DNA of 64,000 nt, taken from assembly GCA_016188865.1 (NCBI GenBank), contig JACPGX010000001.1, positions 13,197 to 77,196 on the forward strand, in the 5' to 3' direction. The stretch comes from Candidatus Nealsonbacteria bacterium (GTDB lineage: Bacteria > Patescibacteriota > Minisyncoccia > Minisyncoccales > MHMH01). Shown here in pieces: positions 225-56,369 of the stretch (within the stretch, counting starts at the first letter, position 1; every line of letters starts with the position of its first letter). Under the pieces are notes generated by a model. The model worked only from the letters and a program-made list of their open reading frames with translations, made no database searches and had not been told where the DNA came from. The translations under genes and the position numbers were made by a program.

Positions 225-397
225 ATAATCTGTTCGATTCTTTAATCGTTAATTAATCTTTCTGATAATCGACCTTTAGCTTTACTAACAATACATTATA
301 CTCCTATTAAAAAACTTGTCAAGTGGAACGTAATATTTGCTTTCGTAAATAAACGTTCCAACAGCGTTTAAATTTTCTATGAAAATTCATTACGCTG

Positions 398-470
398 TGC
401 GCGCGGAAGGAATCGGACCTTCTACCTCCTCATTATCAGTGAGGCGTTCTAACCGGTGAACTACGCGCGC
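398..470 (-). tRNA. tRNA-Ile(GAU)
   Basis: Minus strand folds as GCGCGCG-TA-GTTC-ACCGGTTA-GAAC-G-CCTCA-CTGATAA-TGAGG-AGGTA-GAAGG-TCCGATT-CCTTC-CGCGCGC-A; 73 nt, no encoded CCA. Confidence 0.9.
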
Positions 471-699: not shown

Positions 700-1139
700 C
701 ATGTTTCCCCCTATATCGCTATAAGGCATGGACTATATCTTCATCCTCTTTTTTAACGTCTTAATCTTTCTCGGGTGCCAAGATCCTATTATTGTCACAA
801 ATTTCTCTTGCGAATGCGCTAAAATAAACATTCGCCAATAATCAGGGTCTATCTTTCTGCTGGGGTTATAAATCTTTCCGGTATTGGAACTGAAAGTTTC
901 ATCATGAAGTGCTCCAAGAAGATAAGCTTTAATTTCTTTTTTACTAAGAGGAGCTTGGCGTGTAGTCTCTGAGGGATCCCGCTTCGCGGGACTTCCCTGC
1001 TGATTTTCTGCACTGAAAACATTCTTACGCATATTAATTTATTTTAACATACGTAGTTTCAGATACACAGATGTTCCAGCAAATAGCCAAGTTTTTACCG
1101 AAAATTACTTTTCGGAGTCGCAACGTGCAGTTTGCACCG
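700..1139 (-). mobile_element. 16S insertion/intron 2 (~440 nt) between GAAGTCGT and AACAAGG
   Basis: Conserved 16S sequence is interrupted exactly between ..GAAGTCGT (ends 1140) and AACAAGG.. (starts 699); contains 99-aa ORF. Confidence 0.75.
733..1032 (-). CDS. intron-borne ORF, possibly a degenerate LAGLIDADG-like endonuclease remnant
   Basis: ORF track 99 aa; only weak motif KAYLLGALHDETF resembling a LAGLIDADG helix; lies wholly in 16S insertion 2. Confidence 0.35.
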   Translation of the reverse strand: MRKNVFSAENQQGSPAKRDPSETTRQAPLSKKEIKAYLLGALHDETFSSNTGKIYNPSRKIDPDYWRMFILAHSQEKFVTIIGSWHPRKIKTLKKRMKI

Positions 1140-1220
1140 ACGACTTCGTCCCTCTCACCGAGCTTAGCTTGATACCCCTTGCAGGGTGCTTTGGCTACTC
1201 CCGGCTCGCTTGACGTGACG

Positions 1221-2095
1221 GATTGAGATCATTGAGTCTATGTCTCGTTCCCAGTTCGATTTTCTATCGAACTCTTAATTTTCCATATTAAGACTGAACG
1301 AACGGATTTCCCGTATTCAGCGAGTCCAAAAAATATGCATTTCTTTTTTCCATTGCTTAATCTGTTCAAGTCCATTTTTTGTTTGATGCCTTTTTTTTAT
1401 CACAGCATCCACGATTTTCTTAAATAATCTGAAGTCGTGAATCTTATTACCTTCTAAAGGATTGGCATCGAAAAATGGTATGATGATTTCTCGAATCTCT
1501 TGAAGTTGTGTTGTTTCGTAGCGGTAGCAATTATGATGATTCGGACGACGATCTTTTTGGAAAGAGATGCGTCCTACCCCGAAGAATTGTTTCACCTTTT
1601 TTAAAAGAGGCAAATCATCTTCCCGTAGTTTTACATAATAATGGCATTCCACTCGATAATTCTTTGCACCATGCTTTTTACTAGGCGGACGGATATAGGC
1701 AGTAAAACTGCCCTCCCCGTCGGTTAGACCAACAATGTAATTTTTCGAAATCATACTTTTTGGTTAGGCCCTTCCCCGTCACAACTTCTTAACGAAGATG
1801 TTGGCGGGTACTATGGCGCTAGCTGACTTCCTAGAACTGTAAGGACTCTATTTCTAGGATATCCCCGGGTAATTTATTCTGCTCTTCCGAGCATCCTATA
1901 AGAAAAATTGATGGACTTCCTTCTGACCGCCCGCAGAAGTCGTTCAATTTCTTTATGATATCATAGGCTGCTCTTTGCCTCAAGCCCTCTGCCCTGAACC
2001 CTTACGAGTCAGGACTGCTATTTTTTTGGCTACCCTGTTTTGCAGGGACAGGATTTTAACCTGTTAGTAGAATAAACCGCCGGGCACAGTTGTTT
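1221..2095 (-). mobile_element. 16S insertion/intron 1 (~875 nt) in the decoding-centre (~1400) region, carries homing endonuclease gene
   Basis: 16S reads ..GTACTCACCGCC (ends 2096) then resumes CGTCACGTCAAG at 1220; boundary ambiguous by 1 nt. Confidence 0.8.
1317..1754 (-). CDS. LAGLIDADG homing endonuclease (single-motif)
   Basis: 145 aa, N-terminal YIVGLTDGEGSF motif; located inside 16S insertion 1. Confidence 0.85.
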   Translation of the reverse strand: MISKNYIVGLTDGEGSFTAYIRPPSKKHGAKNYRVECHYYVKLREDDLPLLKKVKQFFGVGRISFQKDRRPNHHNCYRYETTQLQEIREIIIPFFDANPLEGNKIHDFRLFKKIVDAVIKKRHQTKNGLEQIKQWKKEMHIFWTR

Positions 2096-3468
2096 GGCGG
2101 TGAGTACAAGATTCAGGAACGTATTCATCGCCACATAGCTGATTGGCGATTACTAGCGATTCCGGCTTCATGAGGTCGAGTTTCAGACCTCAATCTGAAC
2201 TGGGGAGCCGTTTGATGCGATTAGCTCCAGCTTGCGCTTTAGCAACGCATTGTCGGCTCCATTGTATCATGTGTGCGGCCCAGGATGTCAAAGGGCCACG
2301 CTGATCTGGCGTCATCCCCACCTTCCTCCTGGTTGTCCCAGGCAGTCTCCTGTGACAGATAAAACACAGGATAGGGGTTGCGCATGTTATCCCATTTAAG
2401 GATGCGTCTCAAGATACATGCTGACGACGACCGTGCAGCACCTGCCACGCCGTCCTTGTGAGAAGTCCCAATTTTCATCGGGATTTCGTCGTGGTTTCTA
2501 ACCCTGGTAAGGTTCTTCGTTTGTTGTCGAATTAAGCCACATGATCCACCGCTTGTGTGAATCCCCGTCTATTCCTTTGAGTTTTAGTGTTGCCACCGTA
2601 CTTCCCAGGCGGGACACTTAACGCGTTAGCTTCGCCACTTGAAGGGTCGACACTTCAAATAGCCAGTGTCCATAGTTTACAGCGTGGACTACAAGGGTAT
2701 CTAATCCTTATCGCTCCCCACGCTTTCGTCCCTCAGTGTCAGGATCGTCCCAGCTGACTGCCTTCGCTTTTGGTGTTCCGCACGATATCAACGGATTTCA
2801 CCCCTACACCGTGCGTTCCGTCAGCCTCTAACGTCCTCGATTCTGCCAGTTTTTTCTGCAGCTCCCAGGTTGAGCCCGAGAGATTTAACAGAAAACTTAA
2901 CAAAAAACCTACGGACCCTTTACGCCCAATAAATCCGGATAACGCTCGAGGTCTCTGTATTACCGCTGCTGCTGGCACAGAGTTAGCAACCTCTTATTCC
3001 ACCAGTACAATCAGCCTTGCGGCTTTCTCCTGGTGAAAAGTAGTTTACAAACCTAAGTCCTTCTTCCTACACGCGGCGTCGCTCGATCAGGGTTTCCCCC
3101 ATTGTCGAATATTCTCGACTGCTGCCTCCCGTAGGAGTATGGGCCATGTCGCAGTCCCATTGTTGGGGGTCGCGCTCTCACGCCCCCTACCCGTCATAGC
3201 CTTGGTGGGCCATTACCTCACCAACTAGCTGATAGGCCGCAGACCCATCCCATTCCCCCTAAGCCTTACGGCCGGGTTTACCCTTGCGGGACTATCGGGA
3301 ATTAACCAACCTTTCGGCTGGTTGTGCCCGTGAATGGGGTTGGTATCTACGTGTTACTAACCCATTTGCCGGTTGCCCTTGCGGGCCCCCATGACTTGCA
3401 TGCCTTATCCACGCCGCCAGCGTTCATCCTGAGCTAGGATCAAACTCTCAAAAAAAACTTAATTTTTT

Positions 3469-5956: not shown

Positions 5957-6137
5957 AGCCGGAGAGAGGATTTGAACCCCCGACCTTCGCTTTACAAAAG
6001 CGTTGCCCCGCCTGCCAAAGCCTGAGCCGATGGTCGGATTTGAACCGACGACCTACTGTTTACAAAACAGTTGCTCTACCACTGAGCTACATCGGCTTAG
6101 GCTATGGCGGGCAGGTCTACCGCTGAGCTACTCCGGC
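5957..6137 (-). pseudogene. outer tRNA-Thr(UGU)-like gene interrupted in the D arm by a 109-nt insertion containing an intact tRNA-Thr
   Basis: GCCGGAG-TA-GCTC-AGCGGTA-GA [insertion 6115-6007] GC-A-ACGCT-TTTGTAA-AGCGA-AGGTC-GGGGG-TTCAAAT-CCTCT-CTCCGGC-T; acceptor halves 6137-6131 and 5964-5958 are complementary. Confidence 0.6.
6025..6096 (-). tRNA. tRNA-Thr(UGU)
   Basis: GCCGATG-TA-GCTC-AGTGGTA-GAGC-A-ACTGT-TTTGTAA-ACAGT-AGGTC-GTCGG-TTCAAAT-CCGAC-CATCGGC-T, 72 nt. Confidence 0.9.
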
Positions 6138-53838: not shown

Positions 53839-54529
53839 AATTTAATTGCCTAACTATTTCTTTTAATCTTTCGAGTTCCTTCTGACAGTCTTTGACGCTA
53901 TAAAGTTTTGTTCCCATGCCGCAAGGCAGGGTCAATAAGTCTCCCGGCTGGAAATTTTTAACATTAATTGATTCCTTTGCGCCCCAAGCGATTCTTTTTC
54001 CGTTTCGGTAATGCGGATATTTCGTGATATCAAACTGGGAAGCATCAAAACTGATTATTTTTACTAAGTCCGACTTAAATAACTTGTCCCAGTCCATGTT
54101 ACCGCAACAGTGAACTCCTGGCGTTACCTTGAAACTACTGAAAATCGGCAGCCACAGTTCCTCAAAGTCAAACCCTGCCTGCCCTAAAGCTGGTTCGTCC
54201 AAAAACAGGATTATTTCTTTTGCTTCAAGGCCGTCTAAAATGCAGGAAATATGATTATAGGCTCTTTCAACGGCGTCTTCTGCTTCATAGCCCGACATAA
54301 CAAGGGTTGAGGGGCCCACGCACTGAACCTTTACAACGTCAAAAGAATGTTCCTTAAATTCTTCTAAACAACTCAATTGCCCCGGATTTTTAATATACTC
54401 CAATATCGCATCGCCCAGCAAGGGAAGTTCCGGCAAAAACGGAATATCATGCTTCAAGCTGTATTTTACAGCCTGCTTAACATTTTTATACGGCAAAGAG
54501 CCAACTTGAGTAATTATTTTTTCTGCCAT
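53837..54529 (-). CDS. MetE C-terminal-like (cobalamin-independent methionine synthase / URO-D-like fold) protein, tentative
   Basis: ..ITQVGSLPYKN.., ..IILFLDEPAL.., ..GVHCCGN.. resemble MetE-family motifs. Confidence 0.4.
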   Translation of the reverse strand: MAEKIITQVGSLPYKNVKQAVKYSLKHDIPFLPELPLLGDAILEYIKNPGQLSCLEEFKEHSFDVVKVQCVGPSTLVMSGYEAEDAVERAYNHISCILDGLEAKEIILFLDEPALGQAGFDFEELWLPIFSSFKVTPGVHCCGNMDWDKLFKSDLVKIISFDASQFDITKYPHYRNGKRIAWGAKESINVKNFQPGDLLTLPCGMGTKLYSVKDCQKELERLKEIVRQLN

Positions 54530-55776: not shown

Positions 55777-55804
55777 AAATACACCGGTTGAACCGGTGTA
55801 TTTT
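55777..55804. terminator. palindromic AAATAC..GTATTT hairpin downstream of the tRNA-Lys locus
   Basis: aaatacaccggtt g aaccggtgtattt, 13-bp stem. Confidence 0.55.
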
Positions 55805-55837
55805 GCAATGGGCCTGCCGGGACTCGAACCCGGAACC

Positions 55838-55889
55838 ATCACCTTAAAAGGTTTATCCGCCTTTGGCGGAGTGTTGCTCCCTGCCTGCC
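55838..55889 (-). repeat. 52-nt direct repeat, copy 1 (intact anticodon loop CTTTTAA)
   Basis: 51/52 identical to 56250-56301. Confidence 0.85.
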
Positions 55890-55913
55890 CGACAGGCGGG
55901 ACTACTAAGATTA

Positions 55914-55986
55914 TGGGTCTGGCGCGAATCGAACGCGCAACCTCTTCCTTAAAAGGGAATTGCTCTACCAATTGAGCTACAGACCC
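55914..55986 (-). tRNA. tRNA-Lys(UUU)
   Basis: GGGTCTG-TA-GCTC-AATTGGTA-GAGC-A-ATTCC-CTTTTAA-GGAAG-AGGTT-GCGCG-TTCGATT-CGCGC-CAGACCC-A. Confidence 0.9.
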
Positions 55987-55997
55987 ATGATACTAAT

Positions 55998-56249: not shown

Positions 56250-56301
56250 ATCACCTTAAAGGGTTTATCCGCCTTTGGCGGAGTGTTGCTCCCTGCCTGC
56301 C
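56250..56301 (-). repeat. 52-nt direct repeat, copy 2 (loop mutated to CCTTTAA)
   Basis: Single difference from copy 1 falls on U33 of the anticodon loop. Confidence 0.85.
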
Positions 56302-56369
56302 GGCAGACAAGGTACCAATTGACCCGCCTATCGGCGGGCAGGGCTACAGGCCCCTATACAAAAAACTTT

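Follow-up and report, generated by a model that had tools for sequence, protein, structure and literature searches.

Palindrome-ended insertions in split tRNA genes of a Candidatus Nealsonbacteria genome: a proposed family of selfish tRNA cassettes linked to a small GIY-YIG nuclease

Two tRNA genes in the genome of a Candidatus Nealsonbacteria bacterium are split by short GC-rich sequences, which raises the question of what these insertions are. The two genes, for tRNA-Thr and tRNA-Lys, both lie on the minus strand of a 64,000-nucleotide (nt) stretch of DNA (assembly GCA_016188865.1, contig JACPGX010000001.1, positions 13,197 to 77,196), to which we refer here as the window. The original prediction, whose coordinates and sequences at the two loci all proved correct on the minus strand, had pointed to shared GC-rich end motifs and to hairpins of ~20 nt, and had suggested either a miniature mobile hairpin element or a recognition or processing motif, along with a likeness to archaeal multi-intron tRNA genes. 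Our analysis makes it probable that motifs and hairpins belong to a family of small selfish cassettes that live in bacterial tRNA genes and disable the gene while replacing it. The GC-rich motifs are then the ends of these cassettes, not archaeal-style introns. Two forms were observed, one with a complete tRNA between two palindrome-derived arms (type N, the Thr locus) and one built around a gene for a small GIY-YIG nuclease (type G, the Lys locus).

At the Thr locus, the 5' part of the outer tRNA-Thr (GCCGGAGTAGCTCAGCGGTAGA, 6116-6137; all coordinates at the two loci refer to the minus strand) is cut within the 3' strand of the D stem, between GA and GC, by a 109-nt insert (6115-6007) that starts with CCTGCCCGCC (6115-6106) and finishes with GGCAGGCGGG (6016-6007). 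The insert consists of a left arm (CCTGCCCGCC-ATAGCCTAA, as a whole CCTGCCCGCCATAGCCTAA; 6097-6115), an intact inner tRNA-Thr(tgt) that is called by ARAGORN and scores 79.4 bits against Rfam (6024-6096), and a right arm that pairs with the left one (AGGCTTT-GGCAGGCGGG, as a whole AGGCTTTGGCAGGCGGG; 6007-6023). With the inner acceptor stem included, the arms form a 31-nt inverted repeat that is 81% complementary. The 3' part of the outer gene (5957-6006) comprises the TGT anticodon arm, a T arm with two G.U pairs and the 3' strand of the acceptor stem; it gives a sub-threshold Rfam tRNA match of 26 bits, and once the insert is removed in silico ARAGORN calls an outer tRNA-Thr(tgt). The 182-nt RNA of this locus is predicted to fold into a cloverleaf on a long stem inside a second cloverleaf (-85.1 kcal/mol, z = -6.4). 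An empty version of the site was sought in relatives, where the same-species Logan contigs stop within the outer tRNA and a 62%-identical relative has other synteny. Two of these short-read contigs (L284 and L285, nt 1-30) terminate in the T arm of the outer tRNA-Thr. Contig ends at nested tRNA repeats suggest that such loci are probably under-represented in metagenome-assembled genomes.

The same arrangement recurs in metagenomes. Metagenome contigs were scanned for a left and a right half-palindrome with a T-loop motif between them, 45-75 nt from the left half and 12-40 nt from the right one. This gave at least 120 matches, 80 of which were kept, and a complete inner tRNA lay between the halves in 79 of the 80. 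Its identity varied among Arg, Thr, Val, Pro, Leu, Gln, Gly, Ile, Asn and Cys. In silico deletion of the cassette restored an outer tRNA across the junction at 43/80 loci, with the anticodon of the inner one in 36 of the 43; at the other 37 loci the outer copy was no longer recognizable, and most of these visibly have outer halves with extra hairpins or deletions. Junctions clustered in the D arm (positions ~16-25), the anticodon loop (33-37, including some cassettes at 34/35-36/37) and the T loop (53-55). The terminal inverted repeats (left, CCTGCCCGCCAT; right, as reverse complement, CCCGCCTGCCAT) were conserved in 73-75 of 75 cassettes, with CCTGCCCGCC in 73/75, GGCAGGCGGG in 75/75 and the T.G and C.A positions fixed, figures that have to be read knowing that the scan pattern itself demanded most of these bases and allowed Y/R at the variable positions. 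The arm consensus extends further, to ATNGCC…GGCNAT (on the left, CCTGCCCGCC-ATNGCC); the Thr insert of the window shares this extension, and its left arm agrees with the metagenomic consensus. In the type N form, the cassette measures ~105-135 nt, has a complete tRNA between the left arm CCTGCCCGCC-AT(N)GCC and the right arm GGC(N)AT-GGCAGGCGGG, and is inserted flush at a loop or stem edge of a resident tRNA gene with the same anticodon. The tRNA sequence was contiguous across every insert, without target-site duplication inside the tRNAs.

Inner and outer copies differed in how well their stems were preserved. The inner tRNAs had 17/17 scored stem pairs at 38/38 loci, and the outer ones were perfect at 26/38 (one-sided Wilcoxon p = 0.001), at an identity between the two copies of 63-99% (median, ~77%). 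Among 544 stem pairs, 168 differed on both sides and still paired in both copies, 19 were broken in the outer copy only and 0 in the inner copy. This pattern indicates that the inner tRNA is a diverged allele that came with the cassette. The inner and outer copies at the Thr and Lys loci of the window show compensatory differences of the same kind as the metagenomic cassettes. In the simplest reading of these alignments, the resident tRNA would have been functional until it was interrupted and would have decayed afterward, the inner one having arrived already diverged.

The Lys locus represents the second form. Immediately 3' of dnaJ lie nt 1-11 of the outer tRNA-Lys (GGGCCTGTAGC, 56343-56353), followed by ins1, a 20-nt hairpin at 11/12 of the D stem (CCTG-CCCGCC-GATA-GGCGGG, that is, CCTGCCCGCC-GATA-GGCGGG; 56323-56342); nt 12-21 (TCAATTGGTA, 56313-56322); ins2, 21 nt at position 21/22 (56292-56312); a first copy of nt 22-30 (GAGCAACAC, 56283-56291); a first copy of ins3, the 19-nt sequence TCCGCC-AAA-GGCGGA-TAAA of a TCCGCC-NNN-GGCGGA family, at 30/31 of the anticodon stem (56264-56282); and a first copy of nt 31 to ~45 with a T33C change (CCCTTTAAGGTGAT, 56250-56263). 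Within this remnant, AAGGTGAT stands 5-12 nt before an ATG and may be the ribosome-binding site of the open reading frame (ORF) that follows, a stand-alone GIY-YIG nuclease gene of 82 amino acids (aa) encoding the catalytic domain only (Pfam PF01541; 55998-56246). Next comes an intact inner tRNA-Lys(ttt) (55913-55987; called by ARAGORN, 71.9 bits against the Rfam tRNA model, with a cloverleaf fold), which is presumed to be the functional copy and shows divergence from the outer gene in its acceptor, anticodon and T stems. A 12-nt spacer separates it from a second copy of the palindrome (halves CCCGCCTGTC and GGGCAGGCAGG, 55880-55900), which precedes the 3' remnant of the outer gene (55809-55879), made up of nt 22-30, a second copy of ins3 (55870-55852) and nt 31-73, which include the canonical CTTTTAA loop, the T arm and the 3' strand of the acceptor stem. 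A terminator-like hairpin with 13-nt arms that are 100% complementary, followed by a T run (55777-55803), forms the native end of the outer gene. Overall, the Lys insert spans ~450 nt.

A 52-nt direct repeat (55889-55838 versus 56301-56250, 98% identity) links the two remnants and covers the right half-palindrome, nt 22-30, ins3 and nt 31-45. When the inserts are removed and the outer pieces joined, ARAGORN calls a tRNA-Lys(ttt), as expected from the original claim that taking out the three Lys pieces restores a tRNA. The upstream copy, however, is a 5' fragment that ends at ~56250 and has the loop CCTTTAA (T33C). The CTTTTAA loop that had been placed in it lies with the true 3' half downstream of the inner tRNA (55851-55809), and the GIY-YIG ORF between the Lys pieces (56246-55998) had gone unmentioned.

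The window nuclease matches PF01541 at 1.1e-18 over residues 1-69 and is 100% identical to a Candidatus Nealsonbacteria protein; a neighboring 466-aa window protein is likewise 100% identical to an entry named for Candidatus Nealsonbacteria. An exact-protein look-up of the nuclease returned no record, and homologues were taken instead. Residues Y5, Y16, G18, R26, H30 and E64 are invariant among 24 of them, the GIY-YIG catalytic residues thus being present, and the nearest solved structures are the UPF0213 proteins 1zg2 and 1ywl. Members of the family measure 77-100 aa and lack the linker and C-terminal DNA-binding domain of GIY-YIG homing endonucleases, and the NCBIfam model of group I intron endonucleases gives 20.5 bits against a cut-off of 56 bits. 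Sequenced phages hold only 11 records of the family, at less than 40% identity, and because of this rarity and distance a phage origin of the nuclease was rejected.

A profile of the 24 homologues, run against GTDB species representatives, returned at least 600 stretches, at least 538 of them encoding a relative. The 80 loci that were kept come from Patescibacteria, Bacteroidota (among them cultured Polaribacter and Algoriphagus), Ignavibacteria (cultured Melioribacter), Planctomycetes, Omnitrophota and others. At 55/80 loci a complete tRNA, of any identity, begins between -27 and +100 nt from the ORF stop, and at another 12 a tRNA ends 18-63 nt upstream of the ORF. The contig ends after the ORF at six of the remaining loci, and no tRNA was detected at seven, one of which (L090) does have a tRNA-Arg overlapping the ORF end by ~50 nt. 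The ORF stop codon lies within the tRNA at 25 of the 55 loci (e.g., L014, L039 and L063), typically at U8-A9-G10 with a gap of -10 nt, so that the C-terminus of the nuclease is encoded by the acceptor strand of the downstream tRNA. Across the ORF from this tRNA, a partial copy of it is almost always present, split by a precise 19-21-nt insertion. This insertion is nearly always CCTGCCTGCCGGCAGGCAGG, a perfect palindrome whose halves are the motifs of the original prediction. The universal 20-nt form joins CCTGCCTGCC to GGCAGGCAGG, and a variant joining CCTGCCCGCC to GGCAGGCGGG predominates in Patescibacteria.

The palindrome was found no more than 120 nt upstream of the nuclease start at 39/80 loci when up to three substitutions were allowed, and at 45/80 with up to four edits. 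In 33 of the 39, its end lies 13-32 nt upstream of the ATG, irrespective of where in the tRNA it sits (11/12, 13-17, 21-23, 26 or 30-32). In the type G form, an ~80-aa GIY-YIG (Slx1-like) gene abuts an intact tRNA, with a fragment of the same tRNA across the ORF and the palindrome at this distance from the start codon. Mirror-image loci (clean tRNA, ORF, 3' remnant with palindrome) exist as well, and so do two-sided loci resembling the Lys arrangement of the window. The presence of the palindrome in cultured isolates (Polaribacter, Algoriphagus and Melioribacter) argues that it is not an artefact of metagenome-assembled genomes. Nearest-neighbor pairs of ORFs shared the tRNA amino acid in 45/58 cases (random, 20%), the anticodon in 33/58 and the broad taxon in 33/58 (random, 29%), counts from which we conclude that nuclease lineages track a particular tRNA more than the host clade. 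The nuclease is the only recurrent linked gene across the loci.

Two of the three Lys hairpins are related to this palindrome. ins2 is a degenerate copy (CCTTGTCTGCC joined to GGCAGGCAGG) of the universal form, and in other phyla many tRNA remnants have this palindrome at an identical D-loop position. ins1 is the Patescibacterial variant CCTGCCCGCCGGCAGGCGGG with two central substitutions, a simpler account for which the idea of a cassette collapsed by two deletions was dropped. Locus L015 carries CCTGCCCGCCGGCAGGCGGG itself, exactly the two ends of the window Thr insert joined, and two further loci (L016 and L191) carry near-identical ins1-like hairpins centered on GTA or GATA. The 19-21-nt hairpins (ins1, ins2 and the second palindrome) are probably arms without cargo, either collapsed cassettes or minimal copies. 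At L225 (~250-420, minus strand), a 5' remnant of tRNA-Val upstream of the nuclease ORF bears an ~85-nt palindromic insertion (CCCGCCCGACTGAACGACT…AGTCGTTCGGGCGGG) at 21/22, indicating that far longer GC-ended palindromes take the same site.

Cassettes were also found within cassettes. L168 and L208 are three-level Russian dolls, in which leader, trailer, arms and position in the tRNA are the same at every level, and L176, L191 and L214 are partial ones that retain an extra trailer and right arm after the outer 3' half. In L076, two identical tandem units (tRNA nt 1-21, palindrome, nt 22-32, ORF) stand before one clean tRNA; L089 has three. The palindrome itself is tandem in L072 and L009, and in L049 and L077 it is nested or has other hairpins or cargo at its center. 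The suggestion of a mobile hairpin element or a recognition motif is supported by these data: the half-palindrome recurs across phyla beside one nuclease family and within tRNA genes, and it forms both ends of at least 120 metagenomic tRNA-in-tRNA cassettes, with tandem, self-nested and cargo-centered copies. That the motifs might occur nowhere else, a possibility raised with that suggestion, is refuted by their recurrence in dozens of genomes spanning phyla.

Outer tRNA parts are furthermore rich in small hairpins. Perfect 6-bp GC-rich hairpins were six-fold enriched there (2.77 versus 0.45 per kb), the commonest stems in the outer parts of nested loci being TCCGCC, which is that of ins3 and the commonest of all, TCAGCC and CCTGCC. 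Their loops vary, their stems covary (TCCGCC/GGCGGA, TCAGCC/GGCTGA and TGACCC/GGGTCA), and a recurrent feature is a TAAA tail or, on the opposite side, TTTA (e.g., in L165 and L228). The recurrent TCCGCC stem and TAAA tail place ins3 in a second hairpin family, with ins1 and ins2 being palindrome copies. A scan of viral contigs for the ins3 hairpin gave five matches, none of them linked to a tRNA. Two viral CCCGCC-AAA-GGCGGG-TAAA hairpins (L163:5727 and L161:1669) are flanked by short direct repeats (AACCCAG in L163), possibly resembling target-site duplications.

Within the window, CCTGCCCGCC with up to one mismatch has 13 matches against 2.65 expected from shuffles, and GGCAGGCRGG has 14 against 4.1, so that the two 10-mers are over-represented 3-5-fold. 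Perfect 6-bp GC-rich hairpins number 10 against 2.1 expected, and the three CCGCC-type ones are all at the Lys locus. A chance motif is excluded by these shuffle counts. The palindrome is confined to the two tRNA loci, with isolated half-sites elsewhere in coding sequence; matches at 54174, 60573 and 23312 were rejected as element copies because they lie in coding sequence without a palindromic partner and look like chance. Only three T-loop motifs occur in the window beyond those of called tRNAs, all at these two loci. A permissive Rfam scan of both loci, up to E = 1, found tRNA and no other RNA family, and no PADLOC match pointed to a defense system. The Lys locus is flanked by dnaJ and by two ORFs whose proteins have no Pfam match, and the neighbors of the Thr locus were named from their translations only, without a family search.

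Closer relatives of the Lys locus bear on the fate of the interrupted copy. Nuclease homologues at 79-89% identity occupy the same dnaK-dnaJ-ORF-tRNA-Lys context. One of these loci (L010) has dnaJ, the ORF and one clean tRNA-Lys, without remnant or hairpin, and this sole tRNA-Lys differs by 1 nt from the window outer gene minus its inserts. A second (L009) has a 5' remnant only, with three tandem ins1-type hairpins in opposite orientation, a TTTA-CTCGCC-GAA-GGCGAG hairpin at 23/24 and a degenerate ins3. L001-L008, from eight samples and identical here, have both remnants and a hairpin complement other than that of the window; in L001, ins1 is at the same site with the same sequence and ins3 is identical. 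The hairpin-bearing copies thus vary, truncate and vanish while the clean tRNA is constant, which argues that the interrupted copy is dispensable.

Any explanation has to account for this architecture and its recurrence across phyla, for the shared anticodon, the intact inner and decaying outer copies, the link among nuclease, palindrome and tRNA, and the recursion. In the mechanism that we propose, the outer, interrupted gene would be dead and the cassette-borne or regenerated inner tRNA would do the work, so that insertion would cost the host nothing and would persist. The nuclease would make a break at the cassette position or at the palindrome, the cassette would then be copied or pasted in, and the palindrome or arms would serve as the recognition or structural element of the enzyme. 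The nuclease is the candidate supplier of the break because it is the only component common to the phyla and because Slx1-type enzymes cut stem-loop and branched DNA. At the RNA level, the arms may form a 10-16-bp stem presenting the inner pre-tRNA to RNase P and to 3' processing, with the outer halves as by-products. Each insertion would recreate an intact target that can be hit again, leading to Russian dolls in type N and tandem arrays in type G. Fixed sites per tRNA type, tRNA-type fidelity and tandem arrays favor homing, whereas flush junctions, conserved imperfect inverted ends and a cargo only 63-87% identical to its target favor a paste-type reaction.

Several observations weigh against such cassettes. 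No filled/empty polymorphism at one orthologous site was seen among close strains, and mobility is thus deduced from the architecture only. A putative nuclease of ~80 aa lacking a DNA-binding domain would be an odd site-specific enzyme, and we know of no DNA integration by GIY-YIG enzymes. The 63-87% identity of inner and outer copies does not sit easily with homing by homologous repair, and a cut-and-paste transposon would not typically leave junctions that are flush and lack a target duplication. Most type G loci have an unsplit palindrome next to the ORF, which does not make a classical homing site, and the idea of an ORF splitting its own palindrome was rejected for type G on this ground. 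Perfect stems still exist in 26 of the 38 outer tRNAs. The 5' Lys remnant with its hairpins (L001:2409-2500) is 95.5% identical between the window and L001, compared to 81% for dnaJ and 83.5% for the ORF, a conservation possibly hinting at constraint, concerted evolution or recent transfer on supposedly dead DNA. Nuclease genes near type N cassettes number only 8 in 527 kb, 3 of them adjacent. Finally, the exact palindrome is present in 35 viral contigs (IMG/VR, L092-L126) and has a nuclease nearby in only one of them (L123).

These last two counts would be expected if the palindrome were an autonomous element, similar to miniature inverted-repeat transposable elements (MITEs) or repetitive extragenic palindromic (REP) sequences, that is moved by another enzyme or by replication slippage and gathers in already redundant tRNA copies, the GIY-YIG gene being a passenger or an independent tRNA-linked selfish gene. 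The tandem and nested palindrome copies fit as well, and direct repeats of at least 7 nt, resembling target-site duplications, abut the palindrome at 7 of 39 distinct viral sites versus 0.8% of controls (e.g., CACAGAGA in L094 and TTGCGGA in L110). We nevertheless consider this explanation unlikely. The 13-32-nt spacing to the nuclease start, kept in about half of the 80 species whatever the tRNA position, is unexpected for independent elements; the exact placement of the inner tRNA between the halves (79/80) does not follow from ordinary duplication; and neither the diverged allele inside nor the lack of target duplication within tRNAs is accounted for.

Miniature palindromic repeats of this general kind include MITEs, REP sequences and bacterial interspersed mosaic elements with their REP-associated tyrosine transposases (RAYTs), and the mobile GC clusters of yeast mitochondria. 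The palindrome is like them in being short and GC-rich in AT-richer genomes, with many dispersed and sometimes tandem or nested copies, and direct repeats of ~7 nt flank it only at those 7 viral sites, which lie outside tRNAs. Unlike them, it is a 20-nt unit that sits flush in tRNAs, is linked to a tRNA and a GIY-YIG gene instead of a transposase, and can have a tRNA between its halves. Its ends are CCTG/CAGG and not the GTAG/CTAC of REP elements, and no RAYT was seen in the 64-kb window, which is part of the genome. The viral-contig palindromes are mostly GC-rich and intergenic. In a phage-borne tRNA-Met gene (L093:8616 and L116:2284), the palindrome lies between the variable loop and the T stem, and ARAGORN calls a 92-nt tRNA. 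A split-palindrome scan of the viral contigs gave mostly chance matches in GC-rich coding DNA and no nested tRNA.

Slightly less likely still is a domesticated expression device, in which the outer halves and the GC stem would serve as leader and trailer for the stability, timing or processing of the inner tRNA and as the 5' untranslated region of the nuclease gene, with the hairpins kept by selection on RNA structure and not as relics of mobility. Such a role would suit the predicted cloverleaf-in-cloverleaf Thr transcript with its strong fold (-85.1 kcal/mol, z = -6.4), the 10-16-bp pairing of the arms with their conserved ATNGCC/GGCNAT extension, the better conservation of the Lys 5' remnant than of its neighbor genes (95.5% versus 81-83%), the covariation of mini-hairpin stems with variable loops, and the location of AAGGTGAT at ribosome-binding-site distance from the ATG. 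It does not suit a relative (L010) that lacks any remnant or hairpin, outer parts that are frequently truncated or degenerate, or insert positions and hairpin types that vary between lineages at one locus, and Russian dolls and tandem arrays are hard to rationalize as regulation.

We judge it improbable that the insertions are a new bacterial type of protein-spliced tRNA intron, with the hairpins or the GC stem cut from the RNA, possibly by the GIY-YIG protein, and the exons ligated (e.g., by RtcB), so that both tRNAs would be functional. Canonical tRNAs do result from in silico removal in the window and at 43/80 metagenomic loci, 26/38 outer tRNAs have perfect stems, many inner/outer differences are compensatory, and prokaryotic Slx1-like GIY-YIG domains occur fused to tRNA methyltransferase homologues (PMC1564403). 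Archaeal disrupted tRNA genes, with multiple bulge-helix-bulge (BHB) introns or in split or permuted form, likewise have several short inserts at non-canonical positions (D arm, anticodon stem and T loop) whose removal restores the tRNA, and mobile-element integration has been proposed as their origin (PMC4390854, PMC3293823 and PMC3978253). Those genes have BHB motifs and are the sole functional copies, whereas the host here is bacterial and the interrupted copies are redundant and decaying. The two 3-nt bulges and 4-bp helix of a BHB are absent: the end bases of each insert pair with each other, the inserts are self-contained hairpins flush with the junction, and the last 4 exon bases have no complement within the intron. 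A clean tRNA with the same anticodon always accompanies the interrupted one, inside or beside it, and together with the absence of a BHB this leaves the archaeal likeness drawn in the original prediction unsupported. In type G loci, moreover, the interrupted copy is usually a mere 5' fragment running into the ORF, and in type N loci 37/80 outer copies are unrecognizable and broken pairs are found in outer copies only. RNase P and RNase Z would cleave those cassettes in the anticodon and T loops that hold an entire tRNA, and the characterized GIY-YIG enzymes are all known as DNases. Pseudogenes in simple decay, chance occurrence of a GC-rich motif and an artefact of assembly can be dismissed, for although short-read contigs of this species break at the nested tRNA and assembly of such loci is difficult, this architecture and these 10-20-nt sequences recur at over 200 independent loci, which come from cultured isolates as well as from many samples and assemblers, with motif counts well above those of shuffles.

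Our preferred reading therefore remains that of selfish cassettes that replace the tRNA gene they disable, and the known systems that it recalls each match in part. Among the hallmarks compared, the cassettes show only a GIY-YIG catalytic domain and terminal inverted repeats; those of BHB introns, group I introns, integrase-type integration, REP/RAYT systems and two-domain GIY-YIG homing endonucleases are missing. The free-standing Seg homing endonucleases of phage T4 (with SegB in the T4 tRNA cluster; PMC2330249) also have a GIY-YIG domain and a small, selfish-looking gene among tRNA genes. Their spread, like the one proposed here, is attributed to a double-strand break and copying of the gene with its flanks. 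Enzymes of the Seg and I-TevI types, however, have 200-250 aa and a separate DNA-binding domain, compared to ~80 aa and a catalytic domain only. The gene described here differs further in lying inside a tRNA gene that is regenerated beside the ORF, in its coupling to a 20-nt palindrome, and in being chromosomal in many phyla and rare in phages.

Phages, integrative and conjugative elements and genomic islands use tRNA genes as attachment sites and carry a fragment that restores the gene. They resemble the cassettes in inserting within a tRNA gene, in bringing sequence that keeps it functional and in leaving a displaced partial copy. Such integrative elements span kilobases and have an integrase gene; only the 3' att core is duplicated, and the outcome is a single intact gene plus a single fragment. 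The cassettes, in contrast, measure ~0.1-0.35 kb, have GC inverted ends, hold a whole nested tRNA or a regenerated 5' part and nest recursively. No integrase is present in the Thr (109 nt) or Lys (~450 nt) insert, and the Lys duplication comprises tRNA nt 22-45 and hairpins, not a 3' att core. Fragments of tRNA genes have been reviewed (PMC9897764). Group I introns in bacterial tRNA genes are frequent in Patescibacteria, including at an unusual 35/36 site, and a survey of tRNA introns in these bacteria reports group I introns only (PMC13011429). The insertions described here share with them the phylum, the location in tRNA genes and the escape from standard tRNA finders but differ in measuring 19-134 nt, in lacking a ribozyme core and in relying on a replacement tRNA instead of splicing. 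The window has one match to a group I intron (Rfam RF00028, 74.6 bits; 709-1151, minus strand), between the 16S rRNA gene (2048-3455) and tRNA-Ile (397-470), and the region upstream of it, to 2047, seems to be LAGLIDADG-type coding sequence. The 16S rRNA match is only 1408 nt long while covering the complete model.

Slx1 enzymes are structure-specific nucleases whose substrates are branched and stem-loop DNA, a specificity that, by analogy, would suit a hairpin or cruciform target. The prokaryotic Slx1-like or UPF0213 (YhbQ-type) proteins (PMC1564403; PDB 1zg2 and 1ywl) belong to the same minimal GIY-YIG domain family, and in that report neither a function nor a linkage to tRNA genes or a palindrome is described for them. 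Slx1-like prokaryotic domains are fused or adjacent to a TrmH homologue and linked to COG4123 methyltransferases (PMC1564403). These links are a second, independent tie of the nuclease clade to tRNA. COG4123 is now known as the tRNA m6A37 methyltransferase TrmN6. A further parallel, as an analogy only, is with synthetic "cleave and rescue" drives, which combine a nuclease with a diverged rescue copy of an essential gene and destroy the resident one. Immunity by recoding is not general here, unlike in cleave and rescue, since many type G loci have an intact tRNA with the same sequence as the remnant.

A search of the full-text literature for the palindrome sequence, for stand-alone GIY-YIG proteins, for free-standing homing endonucleases and for nested, disrupted or partial tRNA genes found no published description of such a system. 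The nesting of a whole replacement tRNA in the old one, the 10-16-nt GC inverted ends, the 80-aa nuclease and the recursive self-nesting are apparently undescribed features. We put forward tentatively, as a bolder possibility about which we have more doubt than belief, that the cassette is an unrecognized class of bacterial mobile element of 0.1-0.35 kb, with GC inverted ends of ~10-16 nt, a tRNA gene as target and its own rescue tRNA. It would be driven by an ~80-aa structure-specific GIY-YIG nuclease recognizing the palindrome or hairpin, or a tRNA gene in cloverleaf form, would re-invade itself, and would act as a natural cleave-and-rescue drive from Patescibacteria to Bacteroidota that leaves 20-nt palindromic scars.

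If the cassettes are what we propose, many seemingly interrupted, intron-bearing or pseudo tRNA genes in Patescibacteria and Bacteroidota would be explained. These would be loci at which tRNA finders and short-read assemblers fail, and a simple sequence signature could serve annotation pipelines. The very large UPF0213/Slx1-like family, which has had structures for two decades without a function, would gain a genomic context and a candidate substrate in the 20-bp palindrome and tRNA genes. Nuclease-associated selfish insertions in tRNA genes are already known as a kind, and the hypothesis can be tested in cultured Bacteroidota. The strategy would be that of a selfish element that disrupts an essential single-copy RNA gene while bringing the replacement, which permits recursive nesting; it would parallel, in nature, the engineered cleave-and-rescue drives and might become a source of very small programmable or structure-specific nucleases. 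It would also bear on the origin of disrupted tRNA genes, as a bacterial case in which the mobile-element origin is still visible.

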